Position numbers and translations under genes: made by a program | Virus record (IMG/VR): IMGVR_UViG_3300030093_000028 | Location: 4,052-68,051 of that record | Length of the DNA stretch: 64,000 bases | Direction: 5' to 3' (one strand) | Origin: a virus | Notes under the pieces: generated by a model | Database searches by the model: none | What the model was told of the DNA's origin: nothing | What the model saw: the letters and a program-made list of their open reading frames with translations, nothing else | Part shown: positions 5,324 through 30,498 of the stretch, piece after piece | Layout of the letters: each line of letters opens with the position of its first letter | Position numbering within the stretch: the first letter of the stretch is position 1

Positions 5324-5353
5324 ACGACACTACACCACCTTTCTTCAAACAAA

Positions 5354-6661
5354 CTATTTAAATTTAATATCGTAAATACAATCAAGCCCATCTTCTGTTA
5401 TCACGGAAATCAACTGCTCTGGCTTGTTTCTAAGCCTTTTATCTAAGCAATATTCATCTCCGCCACCAGCAAACGTACCAGCCTGAAGAACCTTTGTATC
5501 ATAAGATGTAACCATTGCATTCGTATGTCTATGACCACAATAAATAATATCTGGTTTTCTACCAGTAAACATAGTTAGCTTCTGAACCATGTTGTTTAGA
5601 TTATCGCGATCACCATGCACCCCATATATCAACTGTCCGCGAACATTGAATATAGCAATGCTGCATTCAATATCGTTTTCGTGAAATACTACATTTTTAA
5701 AATTCTGTAGCTTTGCACTGAGATAGGGGATAGCAAGCAAGTCCATATTCTCTCCACGCAAATTCTCATCTTTATTCTGAGAAAGACGGGAGTGATTGCC
5801 CATGCTTACATACACATTTACAGTATTAAATCTATAACTTAACTCTGTTAAGAACTGAGACAGATAATCTGTAACAGTTAAAAACTGCTCAATGATGTTC
5901 TGATTATTTTCAATTCTAATAGTATTATGAATGAAGCCAGAGATGAGTTCGCTTAGAATGACATAGATGTTCTCTGAACCGTGACGTAACTGAACTTCAA
6001 AAATCTTATCAAGATATTGATTAATTCTATCTCGCAAAATATCGTTATTAAACTTATTGAAATAATTATCTACTTCAATACCAGTATGCACATCAAAGAA
6101 AGTGCATACGATATCATTATCTGACTTTAAAGAGCCAGTGAACTTCTTGTCTTCATCATAAAAAAGCGGGTGACAGTCGCTTTCAGAAATGCTTCTTATG
6201 ATTTGCTCTTTGTAGCTTTCTTTTCGCGCCTGTTCACGAATCATCCTACGGAGTTCATTGCGCTCATCACGAACCTTAACTTGCTGCTTCTCAAGTTCTT
6301 GTTTTTGAGATTGCAATTCTTTTAGATATTCATCATTGTCATATTTATTAAACACACCAGCATCATAAAACTTTTTTGCCTGCTGATATGGTTTTCTAAA
6401 TGCCGAGGAAGTATAAGGCATATCTTCATTGCCGATTTCCTTGTTAATGATATCGGCCAGTTCGTCCCAATTCATATCTATAATTCCAGATTCCTTGGCT
6501 TGCCCAAGTCTCCAAATATATTGTTCTAGATTTTCAGATTCGCCTTTATGTAAATCCACGTATGGCACCTCCTCATATTTTTTCATCTTGCAGTAACAAA
6601 ACAAGATGATGGTGAAATATTTGATTTTCACAAATATCTTCCAAACTTTTACTTCATACAC
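5354..6661 (-). CDS. calcineurin-like metallophosphoesterase with N-terminal HTH/coiled-coil extension
   Basis: Motifs DVHTG, GDRD, GNHS and GHRH in the C-terminal half match the D-x-H / GD / GNH(D/E) / GHxH metallophosphatase signature. The start codon is ambiguous (GTG at 6661 or ATG at 6586). Confidence 0.6.
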   Translation of the reverse strand: MYEVKVWKIFVKIKYFTIILFCYCKMKKYEEVPYVDLHKGESENLEQYIWRLGQAKESGIIDMNWDELADIINKEIGNEDMPYTSSAFRKPYQQAKKFYDAGVFNKYDNDEYLKELQSQKQELEKQQVKVRDERNELRRMIREQARKESYKEQIIRSISESDCHPLFYDEDKKFTGSLKSDNDIVCTFFDVHTGIEVDNYFNKFNNDILRDRINQYLDKIFEVQLRHGSENIYVILSELISGFIHNTIRIENNQNIIEQFLTVTDYLSQFLTELSYRFNTVNVYVSMGNHSRLSQNKDENLRGENMDLLAIPYLSAKLQNFKNVVFHENDIECSIAIFNVRGQLIYGVHGDRDNLNNMVQKLTMFTGRKPDIIYCGHRHTNAMVTSYDTKVLQAGTFAGGGDEYCLDKRLRNKPEQLISVITEDGLDCIYDIKFK

Positions 6662-7386: not shown

Positions 7387-7422
7387 TAAACATATAACCT
7401 TAATAGTATGTTATATGTTTAA
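7387..7422 (-). terminator. 13-bp-stem hairpin overlapping the stop codon of the 966-aa gene
   Basis: TTAAACATATAAC-N11-GTTATATGTTTAA, followed (minus sense) by TTTAAATTTACTGATTT. Confidence 0.45.
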
Positions 7423-10319
7423 ATATTCTGGTCGCGTGACTTTTGAGTTTCGCGCTGTTTTTTCTTTCTTAATCTGGCAAGTTCGCGCTTGTGCTCTTGC
7501 GTACATTCATGACATCTACATGTTTTTGTATCCTTGATACCGACTTCAAACCATTCTCCACAGTCCACGCATTGCACGTCTCGCGTCTCTCGCTTTACAT
7601 TACGAGAAAGATTATCATAAACGATATCTCCATAACACAGCCAAAGAGCCATCTTATTTTTGCCACCATTGATACCGTAAAGAAACTTCACGAGAATATC
7701 GACAATCTTAAAATCATCGTATCCAAACGAAGAAAGCTCTTCATATATCTCCTTAGAAATCTTTCTATACTTTAAATCGCGGCGCATCTTAGATTTTGAC
7801 ATATCGTCAGAAGAAAAACCCTTAACCGCATCGTTCAATGCAAACTGATACTTCTTATTCAGTTCACAATACTTAACAATCAACGGATCGGTTTCTTCCT
7901 TGATAATCTTACCTCTGTCTGTAAACGATATCCTGCATTCCGTTCTAACATCTCTCATCATAAGTGCATAATCAATCTTATCAAGGCCAAGCTTTCTGCA
8001 ATTGATTCTCGGATTCGGAATAATATCATTAAGCTTATTGACGAGACTGTTGTTGATATCAGATACCTGATGCAGCTTTTTATCCTTCGCATATACAAAG
8101 AAATGAGGGAGAGGGTCTTTAGTAAAACCAGTTATCAGCTCCTTTTCGTAATCTGGTCTTTCTGGTTTATACAACGTTTTAGCATAGTCGATTACAAAAT
8201 TATTCTCCATGCAAAGAAGTCTAATTACATCAATTGCACGTCTCTTATCTTCGTTTGTACCAGATATGAACACCTCGCTGTTCCAAATCTTAGAGATGTT
8301 ATTGCTGTATATTCCGATATTTCCACCAACAAATGCAGCATGAAGTCCACCGTAGATTGCAGCGTTATCAAGATGTACTGGCTCAGCTTTTCGCATATTG
8401 TAGTAAAGCGGCACAATGTCAAACTTCTTAAGATTTCTTTCCGCAACTGCAATAAGAGTCTTATCTGCAACAACTAACGATTTGTCCCCATCAACATCAA
8501 ATTGAAGAATCTTACTAATCATGTCCTTGCAGCTTGTGTATACGGCATCTGTGCCAAACCACTCTCTAACACTATCCTTTCTATCTCCATACGCATAGCA
8601 GGCAACATTTTTTCTAATAGCATGTTCCATGAAAAGATGAGGAGAGCGAAGGCAATCAAGCTTTTCATCTTTTCTAAACAACCAACAGAACACCTCTCCG
8701 TCTTCAAGCAGGCCGTCAGGATTATCTTTGCCCATAAACCAATGCTCGCAAGCGGCATAGAAGTCTGGAAGTAAAAATGTATACTTGCCATGAACCTTCA
8801 GCTTTCCAGCTTTGAATCTTTTGACCATGCTATCTTTGATATCTCTCAACTGAGACTTTGCATATTCATCATTCAACAAAGCTGGGTAAAGGTCGATAGC
8901 TTTTTGAAAAGCGGTCTTATTTGTATTATACGGCGTTGCACCGAACACATCCTTAATACTCTCAACGGAACCGCATAAATTCTCAAGCTTATTTGTTGAC
9001 TGGTAGGCAATATCTGCAAGCTCATCATCGGTAACATCAGTCAATGTCTGAAGCATCTGATAATTGATAGTAGCGTCTTTGATGCGCTCTTCCTCGACAT
9101 TAGTTACGCCAGCTGTACACCCATATCTCTTGAACATCTCCTTATATTGATCCCAAGATTCATAATATTTGTTCATCTTAAACTGAGATTTGGTAAAGAT
9201 AATTTGAATATCTTCATCAACGATGTTATGCTCTTTGCCATATATATCCTTGATAACAGGAGAGCATTCATTCACTTCGATGAACTTCTTAAAGTCAAAA
9301 GCGCCAAGAAGACCCTTTACCCACGGTAGCCTAACCATACGATTTCTACCAAGACAAGGCAACATCATTCCCGCTCCATCAGTATGGGGGATAGGCACAT
9401 TGCCAGTTATCCTCTTGATGGAATAGTCCGCATCGTCAATTAAATCATATGTACCAATAACATCAGTCTCAAAATCATCGATAACGATAGTCTTGTCAAT
9501 GTCGAACTCATTCCATACATCGGTTGCAGAATTTGCAAGCGCCATATAAGCAAGATGCTTATTGGGATTGTTACCGCCATGTGCATTGATGTCGTCAATC
9601 GTCAACCCGCACATAATCGTCTTCTCATGCTTTTTCCAAGTTGACTCTTTGACGAATACACATTTCTTTGTGCGAATCTGCCCAGCAGAAGAAGTGAAGT
9701 AAATATACTTCTCGCCATTGTATTCGAAACCATTGTAAATCAAGTCTTTAATCATATCGAAATAATAGACCTGAATAACCATGAAGTCTTCGCATAGCTC
9801 ATCTGGCTTGGCACCGATGGTTCTTGTGAAATATGAATCGAATACAGAAATGATGTTCTTTTCTGATACTTGGTTATCACGAAGCATTCTTGTGTGGTGT
9901 CTACCGTCTGACGCAATATTCGATTCAACCTTATTAGACAGAATGGTAAGTAGTCTTTCCTTAGTTTCGTTGATCTTTGTGTTTTTAAGAGATACCAGAT
10001 TCTTCAATCGGCGATACTCGCAACCAAGCTCACTCAGCTCTTTGCTATCATCTCCAAACAAAGAAAAATCATATTCGTCCTTAGCAATAGATGCAAGACC
10101 ATCTTTGTCAACACCGTAAGACTCAAACTTAGACTCAATGTTTCGGACACCGACTATTGTTTTCTTTGTCTTGCCATCATTGCCTTTGATAACAGCGCCA
10201 TTTAGCAGTTGATTCCTTTCACTTCTCAGCTTGTGATTAAGCCAGTGAAGGGATGACTCTCTATTGTCATAAAAGTTCCCAGTGTCTAGGGAGTAGATGT
10301 CTATCTGCTTATCGAGCAC
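7419..10319 (-). CDS. large protein with C-terminal zinc ribbon; putative single-subunit two-barrel RNA polymerase (YonO-like)
   Basis: 966 aa. The segment ...CLRSPHLFMEHAI...ILQFDVDGDKSLVVAD (aa ~556-618) resembles the beta-prime R-x-P-x-L ... NADFDGD catalytic double-psi beta-barrel signature. C-terminal motif is CVDCGEW...CRCHEC. There is no Walker motif and no PolA/PolB motif. Confidence 0.4.
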   Translation of the reverse strand: MLDKQIDIYSLDTGNFYDNRESSLHWLNHKLRSERNQLLNGAVIKGNDGKTKKTIVGVRNIESKFESYGVDKDGLASIAKDEYDFSLFGDDSKELSELGCEYRRLKNLVSLKNTKINETKERLLTILSNKVESNIASDGRHHTRMLRDNQVSEKNIISVFDSYFTRTIGAKPDELCEDFMVIQVYYFDMIKDLIYNGFEYNGEKYIYFTSSAGQIRTKKCVFVKESTWKKHEKTIMCGLTIDDINAHGGNNPNKHLAYMALANSATDVWNEFDIDKTIVIDDFETDVIGTYDLIDDADYSIKRITGNVPIPHTDGAGMMLPCLGRNRMVRLPWVKGLLGAFDFKKFIEVNECSPVIKDIYGKEHNIVDEDIQIIFTKSQFKMNKYYESWDQYKEMFKRYGCTAGVTNVEEERIKDATINYQMLQTLTDVTDDELADIAYQSTNKLENLCGSVESIKDVFGATPYNTNKTAFQKAIDLYPALLNDEYAKSQLRDIKDSMVKRFKAGKLKVHGKYTFLLPDFYAACEHWFMGKDNPDGLLEDGEVFCWLFRKDEKLDCLRSPHLFMEHAIRKNVACYAYGDRKDSVREWFGTDAVYTSCKDMISKILQFDVDGDKSLVVADKTLIAVAERNLKKFDIVPLYYNMRKAEPVHLDNAAIYGGLHAAFVGGNIGIYSNNISKIWNSEVFISGTNEDKRRAIDVIRLLCMENNFVIDYAKTLYKPERPDYEKELITGFTKDPLPHFFVYAKDKKLHQVSDINNSLVNKLNDIIPNPRINCRKLGLDKIDYALMMRDVRTECRISFTDRGKIIKEETDPLIVKYCELNKKYQFALNDAVKGFSSDDMSKSKMRRDLKYRKISKEIYEELSSFGYDDFKIVDILVKFLYGINGGKNKMALWLCYGDIVYDNLSRNVKRETRDVQCVDCGEWFEVGIKDTKTCRCHECTQEHKRELARLRKKKQRETQKSRDQNI

Positions 10320-10523: not shown

Positions 10524-11462
10524 CTATATCATCCCAATCTTCATCAGCAGCTTCTTCTTGTTTGAAATCTCGCGCATATAGTAGCCCTCACCGCAAGTCA
10601 TCAGATAGCCGTTCTCACGTTTGTACATATTGCACACGAGAGTGTGGTTGGTTCTCCATTTGCCGTCAACCTTGACTCTCGGCAGCGGCTCATAATAGAG
10701 AAGTCCAAGTTCATACAGCACCTTTACCGCCTGCGACATTGCTCTTTCTGAAATACCAATCTCCTCAGCTTCATCACGATAGAACATATTCATGACCTCT
10801 GGCTTCTTTGTTCTTCTGCTTTCAACTGGATTTTCATGACATGCATCTTCGTTGGATAGCCTATTTGGCCTATTTCGTATATTCATCTTAAGGTATGCGT
10901 ATACACGAAGCAGGATATCGTTGTTCACATATTTGCTCTTGGTGTCATATTCCATAATCTTCTCATACTCATCAAGATATACGATGGCGAAGTAATCCGT
11001 ATCGCATTCGTCCTTCACTTTTCCGTTGTTGAATTCGGCAATGCACATCTTGGTATTCTCGATACCGCCATCAAGAGATAGGTAGCCAAGATCGCAAAGG
11101 TCATTCACGGCAGATACAAACTTAGAGTTTATACCGCGACTGTGCCTATCAGAGTTCTTACCGTGCCATTTGACCATCCAGTTGATATTGAACATCACCT
11201 TATCGTCCAGACCTCTTCTCACGGCAAAGAACATAAATGTCGTGATAAGCATATCATTTGAATCGCTGTTGACGATAATCGCTTTGGGGATACGAAAGTA
11301 AACACCGTCATTACCATCAAGCTTAGACTTTGAATCGTATTCATATAAGGTATTATCAGACAATTTGACACCTCCAAGCAAGTTCAAAACATTTGAATTA
11401 TACCACACTTTCCGTGGACAACTAATAGAAATCTTTAAGTTGTCCACGTTTTTTGTGGACAA
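10524..11462 (-). CDS. winged-helix DNA-binding protein (replication initiator or transcription regulator); 5' end overlaps operator palindromes
   Basis: C-terminal AEEIGISERAMSQAVKVLYELGLL is HTH-like. The annotated TTG start lies inside palindrome 1. The nearest in-frame ATG is at 11252. Confidence 0.5.
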   Translation of the reverse strand: MSTKNVDNLKISISCPRKVWYNSNVLNLLGGVKLSDNTLYEYDSKSKLDGNDGVYFRIPKAIIVNSDSNDMLITTFMFFAVRRGLDDKVMFNINWMVKWHGKNSDRHSRGINSKFVSAVNDLCDLGYLSLDGGIENTKMCIAEFNNGKVKDECDTDYFAIVYLDEYEKIMEYDTKSKYVNNDILLRVYAYLKMNIRNRPNRLSNEDACHENPVESRRTKKPEVMNMFYRDEAEEIGISERAMSQAVKVLYELGLLYYEPLPRVKVDGKWRTNHTLVCNMYKRENGYLMTCGEGYYMREISNKKKLLMKIGMI

Positions 11463-11546
11463 GTGTAAAAAGTAACTGACTTGTCCACGTTTTTTGTGGA
11501 CAACTATACCATTATACCCCTACTTGTCCACGTTTTTTGTGGAAAT
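11412..11546. promoter_or_regulatory. operator-like cluster: three TTGTCCAC-N7-GTGGACAA palindromes at ~42-bp spacing plus one half-site
   Basis: The palindromes lie at 11440-11462, 11481-11503 and 11524-11546 (the last has a degenerate right half). The half-site is at 11414-11421. The extended motif GTGGACAACTATACC is shared with the second cluster at 20181-20287. Confidence 0.65.
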
Positions 11547-11629
11547 TTATACATTCCTAACAAAATAGATATATACAAAATAGATAAATATGTCTACGAC
11601 AAAATAATAGCTATGTGGGTATGGGGATA

Positions 11630-11865
11630 TAGACCATATCAAAGACATAGATAATCTTGGACAAATTTGGATGTCTTCTATATAAGAACTCCAAATTTGT
11701 CCCATTAGTTTTATCTATTTAATAAATATCTATTCTAAAAAAAATAGCCGTATCAAAAGATATAAGAAAATCAATATTACAGATATGAAAATATAGACTG
11801 TATCAGAGATATAAAACTTACTATATCAGAGATATAAAAATAACCTACATCAAAGATATAGGAGT
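11630..11865. repeat. iteron-like direct repeats ATCARAGAYATA (5 copies) in an AT-rich non-coding region, plus a 12-bp inverted repeat
   Basis: The copies read catatcaaagacatagat, tatcaaaagatataag, tatcagagatataaaac, tatcagagatataaaaa and catcaaagatataggag. The inverted repeat is GGACAAATTTGG (11659-11670) / CCAAATTTGTCC (11691-11702). Confidence 0.45.
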
Positions 11866-12589
11866 ATAGCATCTACGATGCTGACGATATGTAGATATAT
11901 TACCTAATTATAATGTCATATTAATTAAATACGAAGCATAGATAACGGTATCACCAATTATATCTTAATGCTAAATAGCTTTATATCAAGTGTATATTTC
12001 TTGTTATTTATATTGTCCTCAATAACATATTAGATTGAATATTAATAGCTTCTATATCTATGTTGTTGATATGTAGTTATATTTATATGCATAACCGGAT
12101 AGTTTCCTTTTTTAAATTGCCACCAATTCAATAGCTTATCTTATAGCATATTTATTTGAATATAGATCGCTTTGTTGTATTGGTGTTTATTTGGATGTTT
12201 ATATGTCTGCAAATATAGATCGTATACGTATTTCGATTGTTATCTTATGTAGTTGCATATTGGTTTCCTATCTATTGCCATCTGGTCATACCGTATATTT
12301 TACCGTTTATAAATTGTTATATATGTAGTTATATATTGTTGGTATGTAGATAGATTTCCAGAGTGATATAGATGAATTTATAGTGGGTCAGATATTTTTT
12401 TCGGTTGTGTTTAGATGAAACACATAGCTAGGATCAACAATAAAAAAAACGAACCAGAAGTTTTAATACACCCCCATACCCCTATCTACCTGCGGTTTTG
12501 TCGTTTTGTAGTGTAGTTTATTACCCCTACAATGTGCAATAAAAACGGTGGGGGCATGAGTGCAAAAAAAACAGGGGGTATTGCACTTG

Positions 12590-12680
12590 AAAAACTAACC
12601 CCCTATAGCCCACACAAAAACTAACCCCCCATATAACGTTCAAAAAAACCAACCCCCCATATAACGTTCAAAAAAACCAA
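12590..12680. repeat. C-tract repeats, including a tandem 28-bp duplication of AACCCCCCATATAACGTTCAAAAAAACC
   Basis: The two copies lie at 12623-12650 and 12651-12678. The related unit AAAAACTAACCCCC lies just upstream. Confidence 0.6.
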
Positions 12681-12710
12681 CCCCCTGTTTAGAACGAACG
12701 ACACAACGAA

Positions 12711-12896
12711 AGTTTTCAACAGGTTTTCAACATATCTAATACCATTAAATAGTTTTCAACAGAGTTTTCAACAACTTTTCAACAGATCCATGACTTTTCA
12801 ACAGAGTTTTCAACAACTTTTCAACAGATCCATGACTTTTCAACAGAGTTTTCAACAAAAAAAGTTGTACAACAAAGTTTTCAACAAACCTAATAC
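12711..12896. repeat. array of ~11 TTTTCAACA direct repeats, including an exact 42-bp tandem duplication
   Basis: The unit cttttcaacagatccatgacttttcaacagagttttcaacaa occurs twice (12775-12816 and 12817-12858). The region is non-coding, and ORF 12790-12981 is a repeat artefact. Confidence 0.65.
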
Positions 12897-13449
12897 TAGA
12901 AACAAACTGCAATTTATGCAAATTTTCGTTAAAACAGCCCTGTTTTATGCGTTTTTTTGCATATCGACCCCAAAACCTTAAACCTAAACTTGAACCTTAA
13001 GTATGCGCGTTTTTGTATATATCGACCTGTTTTATGCATTTAATATAGCTATGCGCTAGTAGCATATTGTAGTTTTCATCGTTATGGCATAGCTGTTTAT
13101 CTGCTGTTTTATTGTAAATGTGTTGAGAATGTGTATTACCGCACAAGCCACTTTATGCACTGTATAGTTTGAGCCGTCAAACAGGAACCCAAACGAAAGG
13201 ACGAAAGCAAACAGCGGGCTAGCAACCCAAACACATATAGGCACCTGTTATCTATATGGGTGTGCCGTCTATAGGCGGCGTAGTGTACCTATTGCGCGTG
13301 GTGATGTGGGTCAAACTGATAAGCCATTGCAAGACTATAGGGAAGCTATCTCGAACCTTGAGAACCGCATATTAAAATATAGGACGCAACACAAACGGCG
13401 CTTATGCCTACACGTCAACCACCTAAAACCACTATTTAAGGAGTTTACT

Positions 13450-13806
13450 ATGTACGTTAAGCACACCGTTACCGTTGCCGATACCACTATGACGAACTAT
13501 ACCGTTACCGCCGATGAACTTCACATTTTCATTGCAGATACCATTAAGCGGTGTGGCGGTATCCACTATCAGAGCGATGTCCTACTCGACTATAAGAGCA
13601 TGTTGCACCACATGAACGATAAAGGCGGCTATATGTGGTCTATCCGCGCCACTGGCACGTGGTTTATGCCTATCATGGCATATGCCACCCATCAGCCCGA
13701 TATGTTCACCACGCCGATTATTCGCTACGTTGTCGTAAAGGAGGGCGATACGTATAGGTTCACCGAATACGTAAAGCTCGACCTCGACAAACTCGCCAAC
13801 CTATAA
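13450..13806 (+). CDS. hypothetical protein (118 aa)
   Basis: Strong SD TAAGGAG 7 nt upstream of ATG 13450. The ORF-track start at 13306 lacks an RBS. GC is ~48 percent, higher than the surrounding sequence. Confidence 0.5.
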   Translation: MYVKHTVTVADTTMTNYTVTADELHIFIADTIKRCGGIHYQSDVLLDYKSMLHHMNDKGGYMWSIRATGTWFMPIMAYATHQPDMFTTPIIRYVVVKEGDTYRFTEYVKLDLDKLANL

Positions 13807-13850
13807 TATCCATCCGTAGGCGTGAGCGCCGCATGTGTTGCGTCCTGCCC

Positions 13851-14254
13851 GATAGGTTTCAATCGTGGGCTATCCCCAAAACGAAAGGGGATACCATGCC
13901 TAACCTAACTATCGATTTCGTGCAAGATTTCACCTGCGTCCGCGCCCACAAGCTCGATGATATGTATCAGCGGTACACTCGTAGCGATGATACGCAACTC
14001 ATAGACGTGTATGGACGCTATAGCGACAAGAAAGCGCGCGCATATGCGTATTGCCGCAACCTCATGCTAAAGTATGACGGCTACGATTTCCGTATCATCA
14101 GCTACAACACATTTATGTTTACGTGTGGTTTCATGTTCCGCGACCCCGCAACCGATGAACTCACGTTTGCATATATCACGCCTACCTATAACTATTGCTC
14201 GCCTATTGCATAACTACTATCAGCTATGGGGATAGCCTACAATTGAAACCTATC
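13851..14254. repeat. 28-bp imperfect inverted repeats flanking a single small ORF (404-bp IR-bounded cassette)
   Basis: IR-L is gataggtttcaatcgtgggctatcccca (13851-13878). IR-R is tggggatagcctacaattgaaacctatc (14227-14254). The reverse complement of IR-R matches IR-L at 26/28 positions. Confidence 0.6.
13896..14213 (+). CDS. hypothetical protein (105 aa) inside the IR-bounded cassette
   Basis: RBS GAAAGGGG then ATG 13896. The ORF ends 13 bp before IR-R. Confidence 0.5.
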   Translation: MPNLTIDFVQDFTCVRAHKLDDMYQRYTRSDDTQLIDVYGRYSDKKARAYAYCRNLMLKYDGYDFRIISYNTFMFTCGFMFRDPATDELTFAYITPTYNYCSPIA

Positions 14255-14284
14255 AGATAGCAATCAGCCAGGAGGGGAAAGATT

Positions 14285-14548
14285 ATGGTAAAGTTCTATG
14301 AGACACTGGACAGTGAAGGGCGCGTTTGCATCCGCCTTAATCGCCGCAACGGGCGCATTCTAGCCCGTTGGCGCAACGATATGCCCAACCAGACCCGCTA
14401 TCAGTTCGTGCGTGAGCGGAAGGCGGTTTTGGACGGGTACGGTGAGATGTGCTACACTGCCATACAATGCGCACTGTACGCAAACGGTATGAGCGATTTT
14501 TCGCCTGCCGTACACGCGCCCGAACTGGGATACCGCTATATCAGATAG
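14285..14548 (+). CDS. hypothetical protein (87 aa)
   Basis: SD AGGAGG then ATG 14285. Confidence 0.5.
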   Translation: MVKFYETLDSEGRVCIRLNRRNGRILARWRNDMPNQTRYQFVRERKAVLDGYGEMCYTAIQCALYANGMSDFSPAVHAPELGYRYIR

Positions 14549-14556
14549 CGGCAAGG

Positions 14557-14606
14557 TGTGAGCGTGCGAAACTATGCACGCTCACACCAACCAACCAACC
14601 AACCAA
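14557..14606 (+). terminator. hairpin GTGTGAGCGTGC-N6-GCACGCTCACAC followed by the microsatellite (CCAA)5
   Basis: 12-bp stem at 14557-14587. (CCAA)5 lies at 14587-14606. There is no T-run, so terminator function is uncertain. Confidence 0.3.
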
Positions 14607-14622
14607 AAAGAAGGGTACAATC

Positions 14623-14943
14623 ATGAACGATACACGTAACGCGCTGCGCCACTACTGCTGGAATACGTCACCAAAAAGCATCATGAACATGTGCATTAAA
14701 CGCGACTGGTATAACGCTGGTAGTGGCGTTGCATATGGGCATATGCTCGATTTTGTCCGCGATAACGAAACTATCGAGGACGATAGCGGCAAATATCTTG
14801 ACGTTGTGGAGCATATCGCAAAAGACATATACGAGCACACCGACATTGACGACAATAGCGATTTTTCGGCAACCGATGTTGCATGTGCTATTATGAACGA
14901 AGCGACCATACACTACTGGTATTGGGAAAGTCCCGAATACTAA
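14623..14943 (+). CDS. hypothetical acidic protein (106 aa)
   Basis: RBS AAGAAGGG then ATG 14623. The longer ORF-track version (14449) overlaps the previous gene. Confidence 0.5.
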   Translation: MNDTRNALRHYCWNTSPKSIMNMCIKRDWYNAGSGVAYGHMLDFVRDNETIEDDSGKYLDVVEHIAKDIYEHTDIDDNSDFSATDVACAIMNEATIHYWYWESPEY

Positions 14944-14952
14944 CTAGAATTA

Positions 14953-14983
14953 GGGGAACTCTATCCCGAGTTCCCCTTTTTTT
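14953..14983 (+). terminator. intrinsic terminator GGGGAACTC-N5-GAGTTCCCC followed by T7
   Basis: Perfect 9-bp stem followed by TTTTTTT. Confidence 0.65.
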
Positions 14984-14984
14984 A

Positions 14985-15360
14985 TGGAAAAAGTTATGGA
15001 GATTCTATAATTTTTTCGTGGAGAAAATGTGGAGATTTTGTGTGCGATCCATAGTTATGGAGAAAATGTGGAGAGTATGTGGAGCTTTGATGGAGATTTT
15101 ATGTGCATCTGATGGAAAAGCTATGGAGATTTGATGGAAGTTTCATGGATAAATACTAGACTGGGATATGGAGAAACTGTGGAAAACTAACACACTGGAA
15201 AATTACAGACTGGAAAATACCGAAACGCGCTAAAATGGAGTAGTACGCGAAACCAACTGGAAGGGCGGAAAAATGTTTCGGAAAATCGTAGACTGGGCGA
15301 ATACCAAAGACGGTAGGGAGGTTCTAACTGGAATTATTTGTGGAGCTGTTGGAATCTTTG
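14985..15360. repeat. dense array of short direct repeats (R)TGGAGA (~10 copies) and CTGGAAAA (~4 copies) in non-coding DNA
   Basis: Examples are tggagaaaatgtggagatttt, atggagaaaatgtggagagtatgtggagc and ctggaaaattacagactggaaaatacc. ORFs 14883-15134 and 15230-15424 are artefacts of this array. Confidence 0.5.
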
Positions 15361-15550
15361 CGGTAAGACTCTTCTGCTTTTTGGTGTGCTTGGCGACTGG
15401 ATACCCTGCGGATATTTGGAACATTTTCGGTTAGGAAAAATGGAGCGGATTAAATATCTGCTCTTTTTTTTGCGGAAAATGCTACGGAAAAGATAGCGCT
15501 TTGCTGGAAAATCTCGCGCACACGCCACGGATAAATGATAATATGTAATC

Positions 15551-15650
15551 AGTCGGAGGGACAAAGGCACCGAACATAGCCCACCTATTATGACTTACAC
15601 GTTCTCTACAGTTCTGTACTTTTTAAAGTTAGCTAGGTGGAACTTTTAGT
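15551..15650 (+). ncRNA. candidate ~100-nt small RNA, copy 1 (paralogous to 17378-17480)
   Basis: ~75 percent identical to the second copy. Preceded by a -10-like gataatatgtaat. Ends with the conserved hairpin AAAGTT-N10-AACTTT followed by TTTT. No ORF is present. Confidence 0.35.
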
Positions 15651-15758
15651 TGTGTATGATTGTATGGAGAAAATATGTAGGTATGTATTGTCGTGCTATC
15701 TGGCGTGGAACTATGGCAATATATAACTAACGAAAGGCACCAATCGAAAGGACGAGCC

Positions 15759-16067
15759 ATGAACGAGACGAACACGCGGAAGTTTTCGGCACTTGTGAAT
15801 GAGCTGGGATACAAGCTCTTGGCTATCGAGTTTGCCTATGAACTCAACGATAAGGAGCTTGGAGATACGCTCAACACCATCGCCGATAACTGGAACATGG
15901 AGTTTACCGAGGATAACACTGGACTTGTCCATGTGAGCAATTACGAGGACGAGGAAGAAGATTATACTTACAGTGACGAGGGCGAACCGAGCTGGACGGA
16001 ACTAATGCAGGACAACTATCCTAGTGATGAGAACGGCAAAATCTTTGACACCCCGAGCGGCTTTTAG
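15759..16067 (+). CDS. small highly acidic hypothetical protein (102 aa)
   Basis: Conserved leader ...ctatggcaatatataac...cgaaaggacgagccATG. The protein is rich in D/E. Confidence 0.5.
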   Translation: MNETNTRKFSALVNELGYKLLAIEFAYELNDKELGDTLNTIADNWNMEFTEDNTGLVHVSNYEDEEEDYTYSDEGEPSWTELMQDNYPSDENGKIFDTPSGF

Positions 16068-16081
16068 CCGCTCTTTTTTTA
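16055..16081 (+). terminator. intrinsic terminator GAGCGGC-TTTTA-GCCGCTC followed by T8
   Basis: 7-bp stem plus a T-run overlapping the gene end. Confidence 0.65.
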
Positions 16082-16190
16082 TCTATGTTTAATTGTGTTG
16101 ATACTGTGATGGAAAAGATTCTCGACAATCTCGATTCAATAAGTGATAAATTATAAGTACAGAAACCAACCACAAGGAAAGGAAAGAACG

Positions 16191-16658
16191 TTGGCTACTA
16201 AGACTTTTGATTTTGGCAAGATTGACTACTATGGTCGTGGTCGTAAGATTAACCCCGTCACCGTCGAGGTTGAGTTGACGGTAAAGGACGGCAAGCCCTG
16301 CTTTTCTGCTATGGGCATGGTTTACAATCAGTCAAAAACCGATACCGTTGCTGGCGGTCAATGCCTAGATTCAATCGCAAAGCGCACTAAGAACAAACAG
16401 TTCATGGAGATTTGCCGTCTGTGGAAACTGTACCACCTAAACGATATGCACGCTGGCACTATCGAGCAGGAAGAAGCGATTAAGGACTGGGAGTCGAAGG
16501 GGAATCGCTACGATTATACTAGCGCTTGCGAGTACCTTAAAAGCGTTGGACTTTATGAGGTTGAACATAACGGCAAGCCTTACACCTATGGTAGCGGTTG
16601 GCTTTACTGGGATATTCCCGAGGACGATTTGAAGATTATTCAAGCGCTTTTTAATTAA
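16191..16658 (+). CDS. hypothetical protein (155 aa), probable TTG start
   Basis: Leader ggaaaggaaagaacgTTG is positionally equivalent to the GAAAGG-N8-ATG leaders of the neighbouring genes. Confidence 0.45.
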   Translation: MATKTFDFGKIDYYGRGRKINPVTVEVELTVKDGKPCFSAMGMVYNQSKTDTVAGGQCLDSIAKRTKNKQFMEICRLWKLYHLNDMHAGTIEQEEAIKDWESKGNRYDYTSACEYLKSVGLYEVEHNGKPYTYGSGWLYWDIPEDDLKIIQALFN

Positions 16659-16662
16659 GCGA

Positions 16663-16690
16663 CTACCAAAGGGGAGCGGTAACGTTCCCC
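16663..16690 (+). terminator. intrinsic terminator GGGGAGCGG-TAAC-GTTCCCC then TATTTTC
   Basis: Hairpin plus T-rich tail. Confidence 0.5.
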
Positions 16691-17003
16691 TATTTTCTTG
16701 TCTTTAAATGCTACTAATTCAGTATCAATATCGACAACAGAATATAAAGCACTGTAAGCCGTTTTAAGCCCTTATATTTTCTGGCTGGATAACTTATACC
16801 CGACAATCATTTAACAGCCCTTAAATCGAATCTGGCGGGCTTGTAGCGGCAAATGCGGCTGGACTACCCTAGCGCATTTAACGGACAACCTAAGCAACAA
16901 AAGCTGGACAGCATAAAAAACAATATATGAAGAAAGTATGTAGGCGCTTGAATCGTGGTACTATCTAACCAACAAGAAAAGCACGCGAGAAGGGCGGCAC
17001 AAA

Positions 17004-17264
17004 ATGAAAACCATCACGCGAACTGGCAAGTATTTACACGCGGTAGCAGAAGGAAGGAAGGACGGCACGGAGCTTGTGAAGACGTGGGAGCTTTGTTCTA
17101 AGGCGCGTAAGCGTTATGCACGGCACTTGGTCGAGGTGTACGGTTGGGACGCGCGTATGGCTATTCAACGCGCCTATATTTTCGGCTACGACTTTATGCC
17201 CTATAGTTACAAGGAGAAGCGTCCTATTATGGAAACGCGCACGAAAAAGAGTTTCGGCTTTTAG
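17004..17264 (+). CDS. hypothetical protein (86 aa)
   Basis: Upstream conserved promoter-like element cgTGGTACTATcTAACC (16956-16970) and RBS GAAGGG. Confidence 0.5.
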   Translation: MKTITRTGKYLHAVAEGRKDGTELVKTWELCSKARKRYARHLVEVYGWDARMAIQRAYIFGYDFMPYSYKEKRPIMETRTKKSFGF

Positions 17265-17272
17265 ATTCTGGC

Positions 17273-17300
17273 GCTCACTGAAAAGGTGGGCGCTTTTCTT
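17273..17300 (+). terminator. intrinsic terminator GCGC...GGTGGGCGC followed by TTTTCTTTTG
   Basis: Hairpin plus T-run. Confidence 0.45.
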
Positions 17301-17377
17301 TTGTGTATTCATTTGTGAAGAACTTATGAATCTGGGAATCACAATCTCACAACCTAAAACTATGGTATTATATAACT

Positions 17378-17480
17378 AGTCGGGAGGACAAAGCGACCAA
17401 CATACGCCACTCATAATGACTTATTTATTGAGCTACAGTTATGCCTATTTTAAAGTTAGCTACTAGAAACTTTTGTCTAG
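17378..17480 (+). ncRNA. candidate ~100-nt small RNA, copy 2 (paralogous to 15551-15650)
   Basis: The extended -10 promoter ctaTGGTATtaTATAAC (17358-17374) is immediately upstream. The copy starts agtcgggaggacaaagcgacc and ends with the hairpin AAAGTT-N10-AACTTT followed by TTTTG. No ORF is present. Confidence 0.4.
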
Positions 17481-17565
17481 ATATAGTTATGTGAAGATAC
17501 TATGGAGACGAGTAAACCGTGGTACTATTTAATCAATGAAAGAAACCAAACGAAAGGTGGTACAA

Positions 17566-17784
17566 ATGTTATTCAAAGATTTGCGGAGTGTTTGGGGCGG
17601 CATGGTCAACGTAATTGTCTATGCCATAGATAAAGCGCCGCTCACGATTGAGGACTACCCGTTTGATATGGTGCAAAAGCGCCCGTGGCTTGACAATTGT
17701 GAGGTACGCGCTATTGAGCCTGACGCATATGTGCAACGTGATGGTCACTCAAGTTGCGTTGTCAAGTTAGACTATAGGGGATAG
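17566..17784 (+). CDS. hypothetical protein (72 aa)
   Basis: Promoter-like cgTGGTACTATtTAATC (17519-17535). RBS GAAAGG then ATG 17566. Confidence 0.5.
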   Translation: MLFKDLRSVWGGMVNVIVYAIDKAPLTIEDYPFDMVQKRPWLDNCEVRAIEPDAYVQRDGHSSCVVKLDYRG

Positions 17785-17787
17785 CGA

Positions 17788-17820
17788 CAAGCCCACCGCA
17801 AAAGGTGGGCTTTATTTTTG
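17788..17820 (+). terminator. intrinsic terminator GCCCACC-GCAAAA-GGTGGGC followed by TTTATTTTTG
   Basis: Perfect 7-bp stem plus T-run. Confidence 0.65.
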
Positions 17821-17905
17821 CGTGTATATATGTGAAGATAACGTGAACACGGCAAAACTATGGTATCCTTTAATCAACAAAGGAAACCAGAAGAAAGGCT
17901 GAACA

Positions 17906-18148
17906 ATGGTTTTCAATTTTAACATTGACGATTTTCTCAAGAGGTTTGATGATAACTACGATTTTCTCTATGATGCAAGCAGGAACGGTAGCGAAGTGGC
18001 GGGACAGCGAGAAGCTACAGACGCATTTGATGATTTTTTGAAGGAGCATAGAGATTTTGTGTGCGAGTTCGTGAAGTATCGTGGCGATGTTATCTCTAGC
18101 GACAGAGAAGCAGCGGCGTTTATGTTTACCCTATATGACTTTTGCTAA
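17906..18148 (+). CDS. hypothetical protein (80 aa)
   Basis: Promoter-like ctaTGGTATcctTTAATCAA (17858-17877). RBS GAAAGG then ATG. Confidence 0.5.
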   Translation: MVFNFNIDDFLKRFDDNYDFLYDASRNGSEVAGQREATDAFDDFLKEHRDFVCEFVKYRGDVISSDREAAAFMFTLYDFC

Positions 18149-18153
18149 GACTA

Positions 18154-18185
18154 GACCGCCTATATTTAGGCGGTCTTTTTTTTGA
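18154..18185 (+). terminator. intrinsic terminator AGACCGCC-N8-GGCGGTCT followed by T8
   Basis: 8-bp stem plus T-run. Confidence 0.65.
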
Positions 18186-18310
18186 CCATTGATATGTGTA
18201 GACTTTGTGAAGTTAAAGATTCTCGATACTCATAGACTCTATCAGTGCAATAATAATATCAACCAAAGGGGATAAGCCCGATGGGTTGATAACAGCAGAA
18301 AGGTAAGAAG

Positions 18311-18475
18311 ATGGATATTCAAGACGAGCAGAAGGTTATTGCCTACGTGAGCGGCAAGGAGGTCTATAGTGGCACTTGGGGCGATGCACCCGAGGACGTG
18401 AAGGCTTTATATGACGCATGTGATTGGTATCTTCTTGATGGTATTGAGCAATTCGATATTATCATGGTAGCCTAG
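18311..18475 (+). CDS. small hypothetical protein (54 aa; below the ORF-track size cutoff)
   Basis: ATG 18311 preceded by AGGTAAGAAG. Hand translation reads MDIQDEQKVIAYVSGKEVYSG... and stops at 18473-18475. A terminator-like hairpin AAGGCGGTA-N4-TACCGCCTT follows at 18484-18510. Confidence 0.4.
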   Translation: MDIQDEQKVIAYVSGKEVYSGTWGDAPEDVKALYDACDWYLLDGIEQFDIIMVA

Positions 18476-18610
18476 CAGAGATTAAGGCGGTAGTGATACC
18501 GCCTTTTTCTTTGTCAATATATATGTGTAGATTATATGAATTACCACTATATACAACAGTATATGATATATTTATATCAAGTCAAAGACCACTAGAGATT
18601 GGGAAAAGCA

Positions 18611-18817
18611 ATGGCGAAAATGCGGCAGTACACCTACCTAGAGATGACTAAGATTGTCAAGCGCAATGGGTATGCCTATGTGCGGTGTACTGGCGACCAC
18701 TGTATCTATAAGCGCGAGGACGGCAGCGGTACTATCGTGCTGGCGAAAAAGAAGCATATTAACCCTTGCATTGCAAGGCGGCTTATCAAAGAACACAATT
18801 TGATTGTTGACTTGTAA
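18611..18817 (+). CDS. hicA: HicA-like (YcfA family) mRNA-interferase toxin homolog, orphan
   Basis: The 68-aa sequence ...YLEMTKIVKRNGYAYVRCTGDHCIYKREDGSGTIVLAKKKHINPCIARRLIKEHNL matches the HicA consensus (K.G....R..GSH.I...P.G....IP.H....G.....I.K). No HicB-like partner was seen downstream. Confidence 0.55.
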   Translation: MAKMRQYTYLEMTKIVKRNGYAYVRCTGDHCIYKREDGSGTIVLAKKKHINPCIARRLIKEHNLIVDL

Positions 18818-18942
18818 ACAATCAATGCTATAGCAATACCGTCTTTATTGATTCAATATAATATGTGAAGATAATGTGAACGACAACATATTATGGTATT
18901 CTATAGACAAGGAAAGAGAACGCCAACAGAAGGGATAGTCTA

Positions 18943-19524
18943 ATGGCAACGGCGGGAATTGGCAGCAATAAAGAATCGCAGATTAAGTATTTGCGTGCGC
19001 AGGCAGAGTATGACTTTGCATGGACGAAATACTTTGACGAGATTTGCGAGGTCATTGCAAGGTATGACGGCAAGCAGGCTACTAAGCGTATCGCAACGGC
19101 GCTCAAGAAGGTCAACAACAACATTAGCTTTGACGTGAAAAAAGGCAATGGCGATAGGGGTTATATCTATATTGGATGGTATGACTTTGATGGTCGCATC
19201 TGGCGCAACGATAGCAACGATGAATGGGCTTACCTACGCACCGATAGCAACAAGTATCATATTATCATGGCGTTTGTCGATGATGTTTATTGCCTTGATG
19301 CCAACAATCTTATCAATCAGATAACCAACGCAAAGAATCAGGCAATCGATAATTATAATGAGACTATTGAAGCGCTCAATAATTTTGACGCATTGAAAGC
19401 GGAATATAATAAGGCGGTAGAGACGCTTAAAGAGATTGGTTCTAAGATTCCATCTAGCATTTACAGTCGATATGATTTGAATAGTTACAATGTGTATGAG
19501 TGGGGCAACTACTTTAGGGGATAG
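18943..19524 (+). CDS. hypothetical protein (193 aa)
   Basis: Promoter-like ttaTGGTATtcTATAGACAA (18891-18910). RBS AGAAGGGA. A coiled-coil-like C-terminus. Confidence 0.5.
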   Translation: MATAGIGSNKESQIKYLRAQAEYDFAWTKYFDEICEVIARYDGKQATKRIATALKKVNNNISFDVKKGNGDRGYIYIGWYDFDGRIWRNDSNDEWAYLRTDSNKYHIIMAFVDDVYCLDANNLINQITNAKNQAIDNYNETIEALNNFDALKAEYNKAVETLKEIGSKIPSSIYSRYDLNSYNVYEWGNYFRG

Positions 19525-19543
19525 TTAATCAACGTAAACATTA

Positions 19544-19576
19544 TAGGGACTGGGTATCTAGTCCCTATTTTTTTGT
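19544..19576 (+). terminator. intrinsic terminator TAGGGAC-N10-GTCCCTA followed by T7
   Basis: 7-bp stem plus T-run. Confidence 0.6.
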
Positions 19577-19901
19577 CTAGTCTTTGGAATATATGGCATT
19601 GCATTTTATACGCGATATAGCGCCTATTTACCCCCGATATTTTCTCTATGGGTACTTGCTAGGGTCGAGTGCTTATCGGGGCAAATAGGGTCAAATAAGA
19701 CGCTCTAAGCCTATAAAACGACCCTTTTGAGAATGGGGTACACAACGTCAAAATACACGACCAAAGACAACGCGGAAAATTACACCATACAGACCGACTA
19801 TCATTGTATGGAGAAACTGTGGAGACGGATATTCTCAATTACACACGGAAAATCTTTGGTACTATATAACCAAGGTAAAGCACCAGACGAAAGGTGAGAA
19901 C

Positions 19902-20060
19902 ATGGGTAAGGTCGTAATGGAAAATAAGCACGGTGAGATTTGCTGTGAGCTTGTTTACGATGGAAGCTATTGGAGGTTTCCCGATTCATACGATACGGAT
20001 TATCCCTTTGAGATTGGTGATAGCTTTAGAATCGTAAAGATTGAAGATACGGAAGATTAG
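19902..20060 (+). CDS. small hypothetical protein (52 aa)
   Basis: Promoter-like tTGGTACTATaTAACC (19855-19871). RBS GAAAGG then ATG 19902. Followed by terminator GGGCG-N12-CGCCC-TTTTATTTT (20071-20100). Confidence 0.4.
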   Translation: MGKVVMENKHGEICCELVYDGSYWRFPDSYDTDYPFEIGDSFRIVKIEDTED

Positions 20061-20180
20061 GAATAAGACTGGGCGGATAATCTATTCGCCCTTTTATTTT
20101 CTTGTCTGTATCATATGGAAAAAATCTTGCGAAGCATCTTTATCTATTTTGTATATATCTCTTTTGTTAGGAATGTTCAT

Positions 20181-20287
20181 TTTTCCACAAAAAACGTGGA
20201 CAACTATACCCTATTTATGATACTTGTCCACGAAAAGTGTGGACAAGTAGGAGAGTTTTGCAACTTGTCCACGGAAAATGTGGACAA
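20181..20287. promoter_or_regulatory. second operator-like cluster: three TTGTCCAC-N7-GTGGACAA palindromes at ~42-bp spacing
   Basis: Sites at 20181-20203 (degenerate left half), 20224-20246 and 20265-20287. The first site carries the same GTGGACAACTATACC extension as the cluster at 11440-11546. The cluster lies upstream of gene 20456. Confidence 0.65.
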
Positions 20288-20455
20288 CCTAAAGATACTA
20301 CACACTTTGTTATCATTTGTGGAATATCTAGCAAGATGGAATATATAATTATGGAGATAAAGTGGATTGCTAGATTTAAAGGGGTCGATTTCGATGCCTT
20401 TAAACGCATGTGATATACTTTGGATAAAGAAAACCACGAGACGGAAAGGTTTCAT

Positions 20456-20920
20456 ATGTTTGTCGATGGTAACATTTGGGTCGCTGACTATTCTGATGTT
20501 GACGAGATTCGGAAAAAGTGCAAGCAGGGATACAGGTTCATCGGTGATGTTGAGTACGACGTACCTATTGTGAAGAATCAAAAGACGTGGTATCGCTTTA
20601 AGTCAACGGATGATAGTATCGCTGGGTATCTCTATATTACGGAGCATCGTATTAAAGATGTGTTTGATTTGTTGAGAACTAACGTGATTGTTCACACGGA
20701 AGATAATAACACGTTTGTGTTCCATCCCTATGGTATGACAATCAATCGTAAAAAGACTATCGTGTACAAGCGTGATACCGTGGTGGAATATTTCCCTCAA
20801 AAAAATCAATACAAGGGGCTTAGTCCTTATGGTGCTGTGTCGAGCTACGTAAATGTGCATCGCTACCGTAGTATGCACAATACGCTTGTCAACCTTGGGT
20901 ATATCGGCGCTAAAAATTAG
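20456..20920 (+). CDS. hypothetical protein (154 aa), first gene downstream of operator cluster 2
   Basis: RBS GAAAGG then ATG 20456. Confidence 0.5.
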   Translation: MFVDGNIWVADYSDVDEIRKKCKQGYRFIGDVEYDVPIVKNQKTWYRFKSTDDSIAGYLYITEHRIKDVFDLLRTNVIVHTEDNNTFVFHPYGMTINRKKTIVYKRDTVVEYFPQKNQYKGLSPYGAVSSYVNVHRYRSMHNTLVNLGYIGAKN

Positions 20921-22432: not shown

Positions 22433-22469
22433 TAACTCTAATTGAAAGAATATAACATTGGCTGATACT

Positions 22470-22820
22470 ATGGGCTTTAACTATGACGAGACTTATACCC
22501 TTATGCGTAAGTTTCGTGAGTTGACCAAACAAGAAGTACGTATCATGGATTACCTTATGAAGATGGATGTTTTCGAGGGTACGTATAGCGAGCTTGCAAA
22601 AGCTATTGGCGATGAAAAGCTATGCAGCAATGTACGCAAGGCACTGTTGCATTTGCAAAGTATGGGTATCGTGAATATCGTAAATGTTTATTACGAGGAT
22701 GAAGCGAAAGACCATAAGAGCAACCCGATGAAGGCGTGTTTTATCGTTGATGGATGGATGTACGCCTTTTTAATGGGTGGCTGGGATAAGGTTGAGTTCG
22801 GTACACGCGCTTGGGATTAG
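22470..22820 (+). CDS. winged-helix (MarR/DnaD-like) DNA-binding protein
   Basis: HTH-like segment YSELAKAIGDEKLCSNVRKALLHLQSMGIV. Confidence 0.4.
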   Translation: MGFNYDETYTLMRKFRELTKQEVRIMDYLMKMDVFEGTYSELAKAIGDEKLCSNVRKALLHLQSMGIVNIVNVYYEDEAKDHKSNPMKACFIVDGWMYAFLMGGWDKVEFGTRAWD

Positions 22821-26060: not shown

Positions 26061-26216
26061 TACCTTGTATATAGGTTATAATAGACGGGTGGAACATTTA
26101 TAGTTCCACCCTTTTTTATTTTCAAAATTGACTGCAAAAATATGAGCTAACTACTTGATAACTACATTGATATAAGGTAGAATATAGTAAAGAAAGACGA
26201 GAGGAAGGGATTGATA

Positions 26217-30340: not shown

Positions 30341-30341
30341 T

Positions 30342-30414
30342 GGAGTCGTAGCTCAGTCGGAAGAGCAGGGGACTTTTAATCCCAAGGTCGTGGGTTCGAT
30401 TCTCACCGACTCCA
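30342..30414 (+). tRNA. tRNA-Lys (anticodon TTT), CCA encoded
   Basis: Acceptor GGAGTCG/CGACTCC. D-arm GCTCAGTCGGAAGAGC. Anticodon loop CTTTTAA. T-arm GGTCGTGGGTTCGATTCTCACCGAC. Confidence 0.8.
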
Positions 30415-30418
30415 CCAC

Positions 30419-30492: not shown

Positions 30493-30498
30493 CCAATT

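Follow-up and report, generated by a model that had tools for sequence, protein, structure and literature searches.

What do two arrays of palindromes do when they stand 8.7 kb apart in mirror image, one of them directly upstream of the gene for a winged-helix protein? This question is raised by a 64,000-nt stretch of viral DNA (positions 4,052 to 68,051 of IMG/VR record IMGVR_UViG_3300030093_000028; hereafter the window), which belongs to a large Firmicute phage, a distant relative of SPbeta. The answer to which the comparative evidence points, at a probability of roughly 55%, is that the 23-bp palindromes are operators of a phage-encoded dimeric protein: most likely the adjacent 279-amino-acid (aa) protein, modelled with the fold of plasmid replication (Rep) initiators, which would thereby autoregulate its own operon, that of the phage RNA polymerase.

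To define the sites, the whole window was scanned for TTGTCCAC-N7-GTGGACAA with up to three mismatches, 100 shuffled sequences serving as chance baseline. Seven matches were found against 0.15 +/- 0.41 expected, a number reached by none of the 100 shuffles, and all seven were confined to two clusters (left, 11399-11546; right, 20181-20287). So were the half-site 8-mers TTGTCCAC and GTGGACAA, with all 11 of their occurrences in the 64 kb lying within the two clusters (~0.6 and 1.0 expected). Counting the degenerate copy at 11399, the site starts were spaced by 41, 41 and 43 bp in the left cluster and by 43 and 41 bp in the right one: at this period of 41-43 bp the palindromes are phased at four helical turns, all on one face of the DNA. 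The six near-identical palindromes in two clusters of ~42-bp period that an initial annotation of this DNA had described were thus recovered, together with a degenerate seventh site (S0; Table 1), and the extension that it considered common to both clusters, GTGGACAACTATACC, is present in each. Read outward, the two clusters are homologous over ~210 bp and represent inverted copies of one cassette, whose order is AT-rich double box, innermost palindrome degenerate in its inner half, two good palindromes, TTAAAGAT stretch and degenerate fourth site; a 72-nt inverted repeat (11521-11592 versus 20135-20206, 90% complementary) encloses the innermost sites of both.

In IMG/VR the exact motif occurs almost only in 66-131 kb contigs of a single metagenome, in clusters of 3-7 sites with a period of 41-43 bp. 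Nine relatives (contigs of 77-131 kb) carry two clusters, which are 6.8, 6.9, 7.8, 8.4, 8.6, 9.0, 9.5, 10.5 and 11.4 kb apart; no related contig has a third locus with a perfect site, and the relatives of 118-131 kb also have two clusters only. A motif search of the kind proposed in the initial annotation therefore finds the copies confined to two places per genome, and not scattered at random density. When 14 distinct right and 7 distinct left cassettes are compared, neither the half-sites nor the double box vary, while the N7 spacer differs and can even be flipped (AAAAAAC, GTTTTTT, GGAAAGT) and the sequences between sites have drifted. This pattern indicates selection on the contacts of a symmetric dimer and argues against crossover sites. 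The degenerate inner half of the innermost left site (S3) is also kept in all relatives. By these comparative data the palindrome arrays are functional DNA. In one relative, L038 (IMGVR_UViG_3300045988_095267, 5224-5494), the left cluster comprises seven sites, via tandem amplification of a 41-bp unit of site plus spacer.

At the left cassette the palindromes are interleaved with promoter elements. The distal half of S0 holds the extended -10 TGgTATAAT (TG 11405-11404, TATAAT 11402-11397) of a predicted sigma-A-type promoter reading leftward, and GTGGTATAAT is invariant in 7/7 distinct left cassettes. A second promoter-like element has its -35, TGGACA, in S3 and, after a 16-bp gap, a -10, TATAGT (11508-11503), which abuts S2. 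This region drives the 279-aa gene, two small open reading frames (ORFs) and the gene for a YonO-type RNA polymerase (Pfam RdRP, 8e-12; phrog_8308, 7e-240), whose product is 42-48% identical to those of Perkons, C. botulinum phage D-1873 and SPbeta (YonO). The promoter-proximal gene starts at TTG 11363, seven bases after the ribosome-binding site GGAGG (11375-11371, minus strand), yielding 279 aa, a start that agrees with the gene calls for the close homologues P0003 and P0004, matches both the N-termini of divergent homologues and the consensus of a 121-sequence alignment, and is further supported by the invariant extended -10 in S0. On these sequence grounds 279 aa is the supported product, and the 312-aa OR​F is the mechanical longest reading. 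Because the gene starts at TTG 11363, the palindromes are upstream regulatory DNA and not coding; the idea that their arms encode the first codons of the neighbouring protein was wrong. Operator behaviour is supported because the half-sites are invariant, the spacers vary, and the sites are phased and overlap or abut leftward promoter elements.

By sequence the 279-aa protein reveals a C-terminal winged helix only (a weak MarR_2 match at aa 199-229, E = 0.02). A profile search placed it in an unannotated family of at least 424 cluster representatives (50% identity clusters), 132 of them at E <= 1e-30. HTH_36, HTH_24, MarR_2 or Crp_2 were each matched in 14-23 of 121 family members (HTH_36 in 23), and Phage_rep_org_N in one; of the 32 Pfam families to which these 121 members gave matches, the 25 most frequent included no Rep family (Rep_3, RepA_N), and the only repeated matches were to wHTH families in the C-terminal part. 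A profile search against PDB sequences returned only generic winged helix-turn-helix (wHTH) matches (E at least 0.012), and tblastn of the 312-aa ORF returned none, SPbeta having no homologue. On the other hand, an AlphaFold (AF2) model from a deep alignment (predicted local distance difference test score, pLDDT, 96.9; predicted template-modelling score, pTM, 0.93) comprised two winged-helix domains and a long C-terminal helix. When this model was compared with the PDB via Foldseek, the top 21 matches were the F-plasmid RepE54 or the Rep-DUE (DNA unwinding element) complex (probability 1.0, template-modelling score 0.42/0.53, ~250 aligned columns), RctB came next, the pi initiator aligned over 178 residues, and iteron initiators were the only multi-domain PDB matches. 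The resemblance of the predicted structure to Rep initiators is therefore a fold likeness of moderate strength, without sequence membership. Thus of the autoregulated-repressor switch first suggested for this locus, the operators and a neighbouring cognate protein with a winged helix are reasonable, but the coding arms and the plain wHTH repressor are not, the modelled tandem winged-helix protein best matching RepE and pi.

Co-variation of sites and protein points the same way. In eleven divergent lineages a homologous gene (25-50% identity) is directly preceded by palindromes of like geometry with lineage-specific sequence, usually at a period of 41-43 bp where at least two sites are present: GCATATAC-N7-GTATATGC in L041 (two copies, 30 bp period), GCATGTAC-N7-GTACATGg in L042, CCACCCAC-N7-GTGGGTGG in L102 and L103 (43 bp), GCAGGTAC-N7-GTACCaGC in L104-106 (43 bp), TTTCCAC-N7-GTGGAAg in L107 (43 bp), TTGTCAGGT-N4-ACCTGACAA in L040 (43 bp), GTCGCA-T6-TGCGAC in L157 (three copies, 42 and 49 bp), the GCACCCT-N4-AGGGTG type in L158 (42 bp) and the ACACACAG type in L161, a Lachnospiraceae metagenome-assembled genome (about 42 bp). 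Scans with these variant motifs returned isolated single matches only, which is the chance baseline, so the clustered arrays stand out. The palindromes have entirely different sequences from lineage to lineage, which makes a host factor an unlikely binder. The putative recognition helix varies between lineages at positions 1, 3, 4 and 6, which are identical among the TTGTCCAC phages (89-100% identical overall). In L102 the palindrome begins just past a TATAAT, and the palindrome nearest the gene directly adjoins the ribosome-binding site in L103 and L161, positions that fit repression. L040 and L041 share the gene order of the window (homologue, two small ORFs, YonO polymerase), and L161 has no ORF of RNA polymerase size within 10 kb after the Rep-fold gene. 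Such co-variation of site and lineage fits autoregulation by the adjacent protein, short of proof. As cognate binder the initial annotation had named either this protein or a second wHTH protein at 22470-22820; with same-geometry palindromes in eleven lineages the adjacent product is plausible, but the 22458-22820 product has no family match and nothing that links it to the sites.

In the mechanism that we propose, dimers of the 279-aa protein would fill the phased sites cooperatively, and the filled sites would shut down the operon of the 279-aa gene and the phage polymerase, the sign of this control presumably being negative; such control would set the level and timing of the polymerase and hence of late transcription. 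Via the duplicated, inverted cassette 8.7 kb away, ahead of the rightward genes for DNA metabolism, a second locus may have come under the same protein, and the two arrays could pair by looping or handcuffing, in the manner of Rep-family proteins and lambda CI. Two described systems offer parallels: Rep initiator dimers bind inverted repeats at their own promoters (PMC13028717); in SPbeta yonO is transcribed by the host enzyme and not by YonO itself (PMC5467207), and its upstream promoter PyonP is under repressor control and carries a repressor site (PMC10516654).

Several observations weigh against this model: i) L102 and L103 have a common site but only partly similar recognition helices; ii) the L040 and L041 palindromes are located ~55-100 bp upstream of the -10, where they could serve activation equally well; iii) the right cassette overlaps no convincing core promoter, its outer site being centred at least ~140 bp upstream of the next -10 (TGaTATACT); iv) all proteins of one genome diverge together, and the co-variation therefore points to a phage-encoded binder, though not uniquely to the product of the adjacent gene; v) operators and autoregulation leave the double box unexplained. 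The distance of the right cassette from the next promoter, the use of the block's own promoter type by the genes to its right and the restriction of the second cassette to one lineage also make a weak case of the early-region insulator that had been suggested for the palindromes.

The AT-rich double box differs from the palindromes in its conservation. Equivalents occur in L040, L102-L104, L107, L157-L159 and L161 just distal to the palindromes, as two copies of about TATCTTATTGT with a period of 15-17 bp followed by TAGGA/TATGA, and their sequence, unlike that of the palindromes, does not change with lineage; within the 64 kb the box is found only at the two cassettes. It may be bound by a host factor or by the conserved N-terminal domain of the protein, or else serve as an unwinding element. 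Two promoter assignments were rejected. A YonO promoter is not indicated, since the box is absent from the SPbeta yonN-yonK region (near the mapped YonO start) and from Perkons, and is restricted to the cassettes here; for a sigma-A promoter, inspection by eye detected no conserved -35/-10 spacing in either direction.

The main rival, which is compatible with operators and which we hold possible but unlikely, is that the cassettes are replication origins, with the Rep-fold protein as the true initiator, the palindromes as origin sites, the double box as unwinding element, the cassettes as twin or cooperating origins and autoregulation as a by-product. Lambda O binds palindromic iterons, Rep autoregulation operates in F, R6K and pPS10, and the ori/crr pair of P4 and the origins of R6K offer a comparison for twin or cooperating origins. 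The whole-chain fold of the model does match RepE, pi and RctB, but the sequence belongs to neither Rep_3 nor RepA_N. Likewise, the layout of AT-rich repeated 13-16-mers, phased sites and gene, in this order, resembles mini-F oriS (PMC13028717), but the sites are dimer-type palindromes and not direct iterons. The phage has its own helicase, primase and polymerase, with no other initiator recognised in the window, but the gene is grouped with the RNA polymerase and the late operon, at least 34 kb from the genes of those three enzymes; the GC skew changes sign inside the block between the cassettes, but the switch coincides with that of transcription direction. The growth of the site array to seven copies in L038 by 41-bp tandem duplication and the HTH_36 and Phage_rep_org_N matches in the family would also suit an initiator, but DnaA boxes are not enriched, and searches over the 10 kb upstream in L104, L106 and L107 revealed no second cassette, which is seen only in the TTGTCCAC lineage. 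Two candidate origin elements were examined and set aside. Iterons equal to the operator half-site were not found: the tandem arrays upstream differ between lineages, bear no resemblance to half-sites and do not track the palindromes. In the window itself TTTTCAACA x11 matches TTGTCCACA at 7/9 positions, but elsewhere the arrays fail to follow the half-sites of their lineage. As for DnaA boxes, the half-site TTGTCCACA differs from TTATCCACA at a single position and TTWTNCACA has only one relaxed match in the clusters, but there is no enrichment, and the palindrome sequence is lineage-specific.

A combined scheme, more speculative still, is that in Firmicute phages of gut and rumen the widespread Rep-fold family acts as a switch with two roles: the protein would bind the phased palindromes to control the polymerase operon and, with the double box, fire or handcuff origins, and in the lineage of the window the inverted cassettes would loop out the early block, so coupling the start of replication, early shut-off and expression of the late polymerase.

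That a different phage protein binds the sites seems improbable. Candidates would be a catalytically inactive master repressor of tyrosine-recombinase fold, like MrpR, or one of the recombinase-like proteins encoded at 26211-27020 and 27324-28265. In SPbeta, MrpR recognises a repeated element present at ten promoters, PyonP upstream of yonO among them (PMC10516654), but MrpR/YopR and YopP have no similarity to window proteins, and the SPbeta yonR-yonP region has no similar palindromes; an MrpR-type binder was thus rejected, with no homology found and no positive support. The 8-N7-8 geometry resembles recombinase core sites, but the spacers differ within and between clusters. The window does encode a protein with a Phage_integrase domain and a weakly integrase-like one, and co-variation cannot separate the proteins of one genome, but the sites are always directly upstream of the Rep-fold gene, even where no ORF of RNA polymerase size follows within 10 kb. 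The two recombinase-like genes (both on the plus strand) adjoin each other: the 26211-27020 protein has a clear Phage_integrase domain and resembles short mid-genome recombinases of streptococcal phages, and the 313-aa product of 27324-28265 has only a weak integrase-like PHROG match, with no tblastn match in deposited phages, which counts against it as binder.

The partition centromere sopC of F consists of 43-bp repeats, each with a palindrome. Structural DNA signals (inversion or transposition ends of the 8.7-kb segment, boundaries of a long terminal repeat, pac sites, or a centromere like sopC) are highly improbable, for although a mosaic block is flanked by cassettes in inverted repeat, several contigs terminate at a cassette or close to one, the SPbeta pac site (PMC8270828) and the Perkons ends lie upstream of the YonO operon and the 41-43 bp period is close to that of sopC, the block has no recombinase or transposase and a single orientation in ~ten relatives, heterogeneous spacers argue against crossover sites, the contigs break in tandem repeats and contig 101018 closes on itself with a 46-bp overlap, no ParA/ParB homologue was detected among ~40 ORFs scanned (~30 of them outside the block), and most lineages have one cassette only. 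On these findings both an invertible or mobile segment and physical ends or a long terminal repeat at the cassettes were rejected.

The packaging start, rather than coinciding with the palindromes, probably lies in the repeat-rich stretch at 11.6-13.3 kb, a candidate pac/terminus or origin region (11593-13305). This stretch contains a 28-nt C-rich tandem repeat in three copies (12599-12682) and ~11 copies of TTTTCAACA at 10-12 bp spacing (about 12700-12890), inside which the contigs of two relatives break. The SPbeta pac site maps between yonR and yonP (PMC8270828), and the terminal repeat of Perkons is 1.4-1.6 kb upstream of its YonO operon.

Autoregulated phased operators are a familiar concept, and the system, read as such, can be placed among known ones. 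Like the iteron Rep initiators (F RepE, R6K pi, pPS10 RepA), it combines a modelled two-winged-helix fold with inverted repeats at the protein's own promoter, a position suited to autorepression by a dimer, and an AT-rich repeated element beside the binding sites, and its arrays at two places could pair as in ori2/incC looping (PMC13028717). Unlike them, it has no Rep_3 membership, no direct-repeat iterons with the operator half-site were found, 3-7 phased palindromes replace a single inverted repeat, and the gene heads a phage RNA-polymerase/late operon and not a replicon. SPBRE/MrpR (YopR) of SPbeta, from the same phage group, also places a repeated element upstream of the polymerase operon under phage-encoded control (PMC10516654). 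However, SPBRE is a 15-bp motif spread over ten promoters and bound by a recombinase-fold protein, whereas here 23-bp palindromes form one or two phased arrays; moreover, no MrpR homologue was found here, and SPbeta has no homologue of the 279-aa protein. Lambda OL/OR shares two mirror-image clusters of three sites that face outward operons and flank an internal region, looping being possible. On the other hand, the period here is 41-43 bp against about 24 bp, the clusters are 6.8-11.4 kb apart, the gene of the candidate binder lies outside the flanked region, its fold is unrelated to CI, and the second cluster was found in one lineage only; lambda-type overlap with outward promoters is present at the left cassette, but the right one has no convincing core promoter. 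Lambda O and ori-lambda likewise combine several palindromic sites for a winged-helix dimer with an adjacent AT-rich region, but the lambda sites lie inside the O gene at shorter spacing, and origin function is at most a possibility here.

No description of the protein family, its fold, its place ahead of a YonO polymerase or the invariant double box was found in the literature searched. What is known of the timing of YonO polymerases in SPbeta-like phages comes largely from SPbeta itself, and this module offers a concrete control point. The model suggests that a phage transcription operon has come to be headed by a plasmid-initiator fold, whether by recruitment or by retention, which bears on the interconversion of replication initiators and transcription regulators. 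Furthermore, the invariant double box beside lineage-specific palindromes marks a second factor or function, and a defined protein with 23-bp sites and natural specificity variants in eleven lineages could serve as a source of orthogonal protein/operator pairs.

Table 1. Features of the two cassettes and their surroundings (window coordinates)
Feature	Position	Strand	Basis
YonO-type single-subunit (two-barrel) RNA polymerase, 966 aa, downstream in the same leftward operon	7419-10319	-	Pfam RdRP, phrog_8308
279-aa tandem winged-helix (Rep-fold) gene, candidate binder, first in the leftward operon	10524-11363	-	Start, homologues, model
S0, degenerate fourth left site, TTGTCCACggaaagtGTGGtata	11397-11421	-	Palindrome match 11399-11421, 3 mismatches; distal half is the extended -10
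S1, left palindrome TTGTCCACGTTTTTTGTGGACAA, perfect	11440-11462		Palindrome scan
S2, left palindrome, perfect	11481-11503		Palindrome scan
S3, innermost left palindrome, degenerate inner half GTGGAAAT	11524-11546		Scan, 2 mismatches
Left AT-rich double box, 2x TATCTATTTTGT then TAGGAATG, read outward	11549-11592	-	Inverted-repeat and cassette comparison
Stretch without sizeable ORFs (longest 63 aa), repeat arrays	11593-13305		ORF and repeat scans
Small orphan genes, most with own terminator and repeated promoter/leader unit	13306-20091	+	ORF, terminator and family scans
Right AT-rich double box TATCTATTTTGTA / TATCTCTTTTGTTAGGAATG, inverted relative to left copy	20135-20175	+	Inverted-repeat and cassette comparison
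S3r, innermost right palindrome TTTTCCACAAAAAACGTGGACAA	20181-20203		Scan, 1 mismatch
S2r, right palindrome, perfect half-sites, spacer GAAAAGT	20224-20246		Scan
S1r, right palindrome, perfect half-sites, spacer GGAAAAT	20265-20287		Scan
Degenerate S0-like remnant CACAC...GTGGAA	20301-20325		Homologous to left S0 region
154-aa orphan, first rightward gene beyond the right cassette	20456-20920	+	Extended -10 TGaTATACT 20411-20419, ribosome-binding site GGAAAGG 20443-20449

The block between the cassettes is compositionally distinct, with a GC content of 41-48% at 13-20 kb against 32-40% in the flanks. A scan of 11.0-21.5 kb detected 19 terminator-like sites versus 7.3 expected, 14 of the 19 on the plus strand, and the block holds repeated promoter/leader units (repeat families D1-D3, D6 and D7); the description of the clusters as the edges of a distinct block of mini-transcription units was thereby confirmed. 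Several contigs are 96-99% identical to the window in the flanks, and the interior of the block has a mosaic content. No deposited phage was matched when the block served as Megablast query. Pfam and PHROG scans of its ten largest ORFs recovered no known DNA-binding family, recombinase or transposase; no Pfam match of the block ORFs came near the curated cut-off, and the single PHROG match is of unknown function. At 13.3-14.9 kb, where GC is high, substitutions are in excess at third codon positions, from which this stretch is judged to be coding; structured RNAs were rejected there, Rfam matches being sub-threshold only. Genes 13306-13806 and 13833-14213 are each bracketed by an inverted repeat of ~30 nt (87-93% complementary); in both pairs, 13381-13411/13816-13846 and 13851-13878/14227-14254, one arm lies in the 5' part of the ORF and the other shortly after its stop. 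An array of TGGAGA/TGTGGA boxes with 11-bp period occupies 15012-15183, and many small genes at 15.6-21.2 kb are preceded by related double boxes, TATGTGAAGAnnnnTGTGAA, followed by an extended -10 (TGgTAnnnT) and a conserved leader, a combination that may represent a dedicated early-promoter type.

Outside the block, the leftward arm encodes portal, large terminase and nucleases besides the YonO-type polymerase, and the rightward arm the two tyrosine-recombinase-like proteins, a ROOL RNA and eight tRNAs, RNA-repair enzymes, a DnaB-type helicase, a primase and a DNA polymerase. The interval from the right cassette to the promoter of gene 20456 contains a near-perfect palindrome, TTTAAAGGnnTCGAttTCGAnnCCTTTAAA (20373-20402), partly conserved in relatives. 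In L013 and L031, too, the right cassette is followed by this gene. The ROOL RNA is full-length (29000-29553, plus strand; 293 bits, E 2.6e-66) and located just upstream of the eight tRNA genes (30145-30972), one of which (30145-30232) has an unassignable anticodon. Further right, HNH endonuclease genes or domains (37184-38626 and 46830-47633) are interspersed with genes for RNA ligase, polynucleotide kinase and replication.

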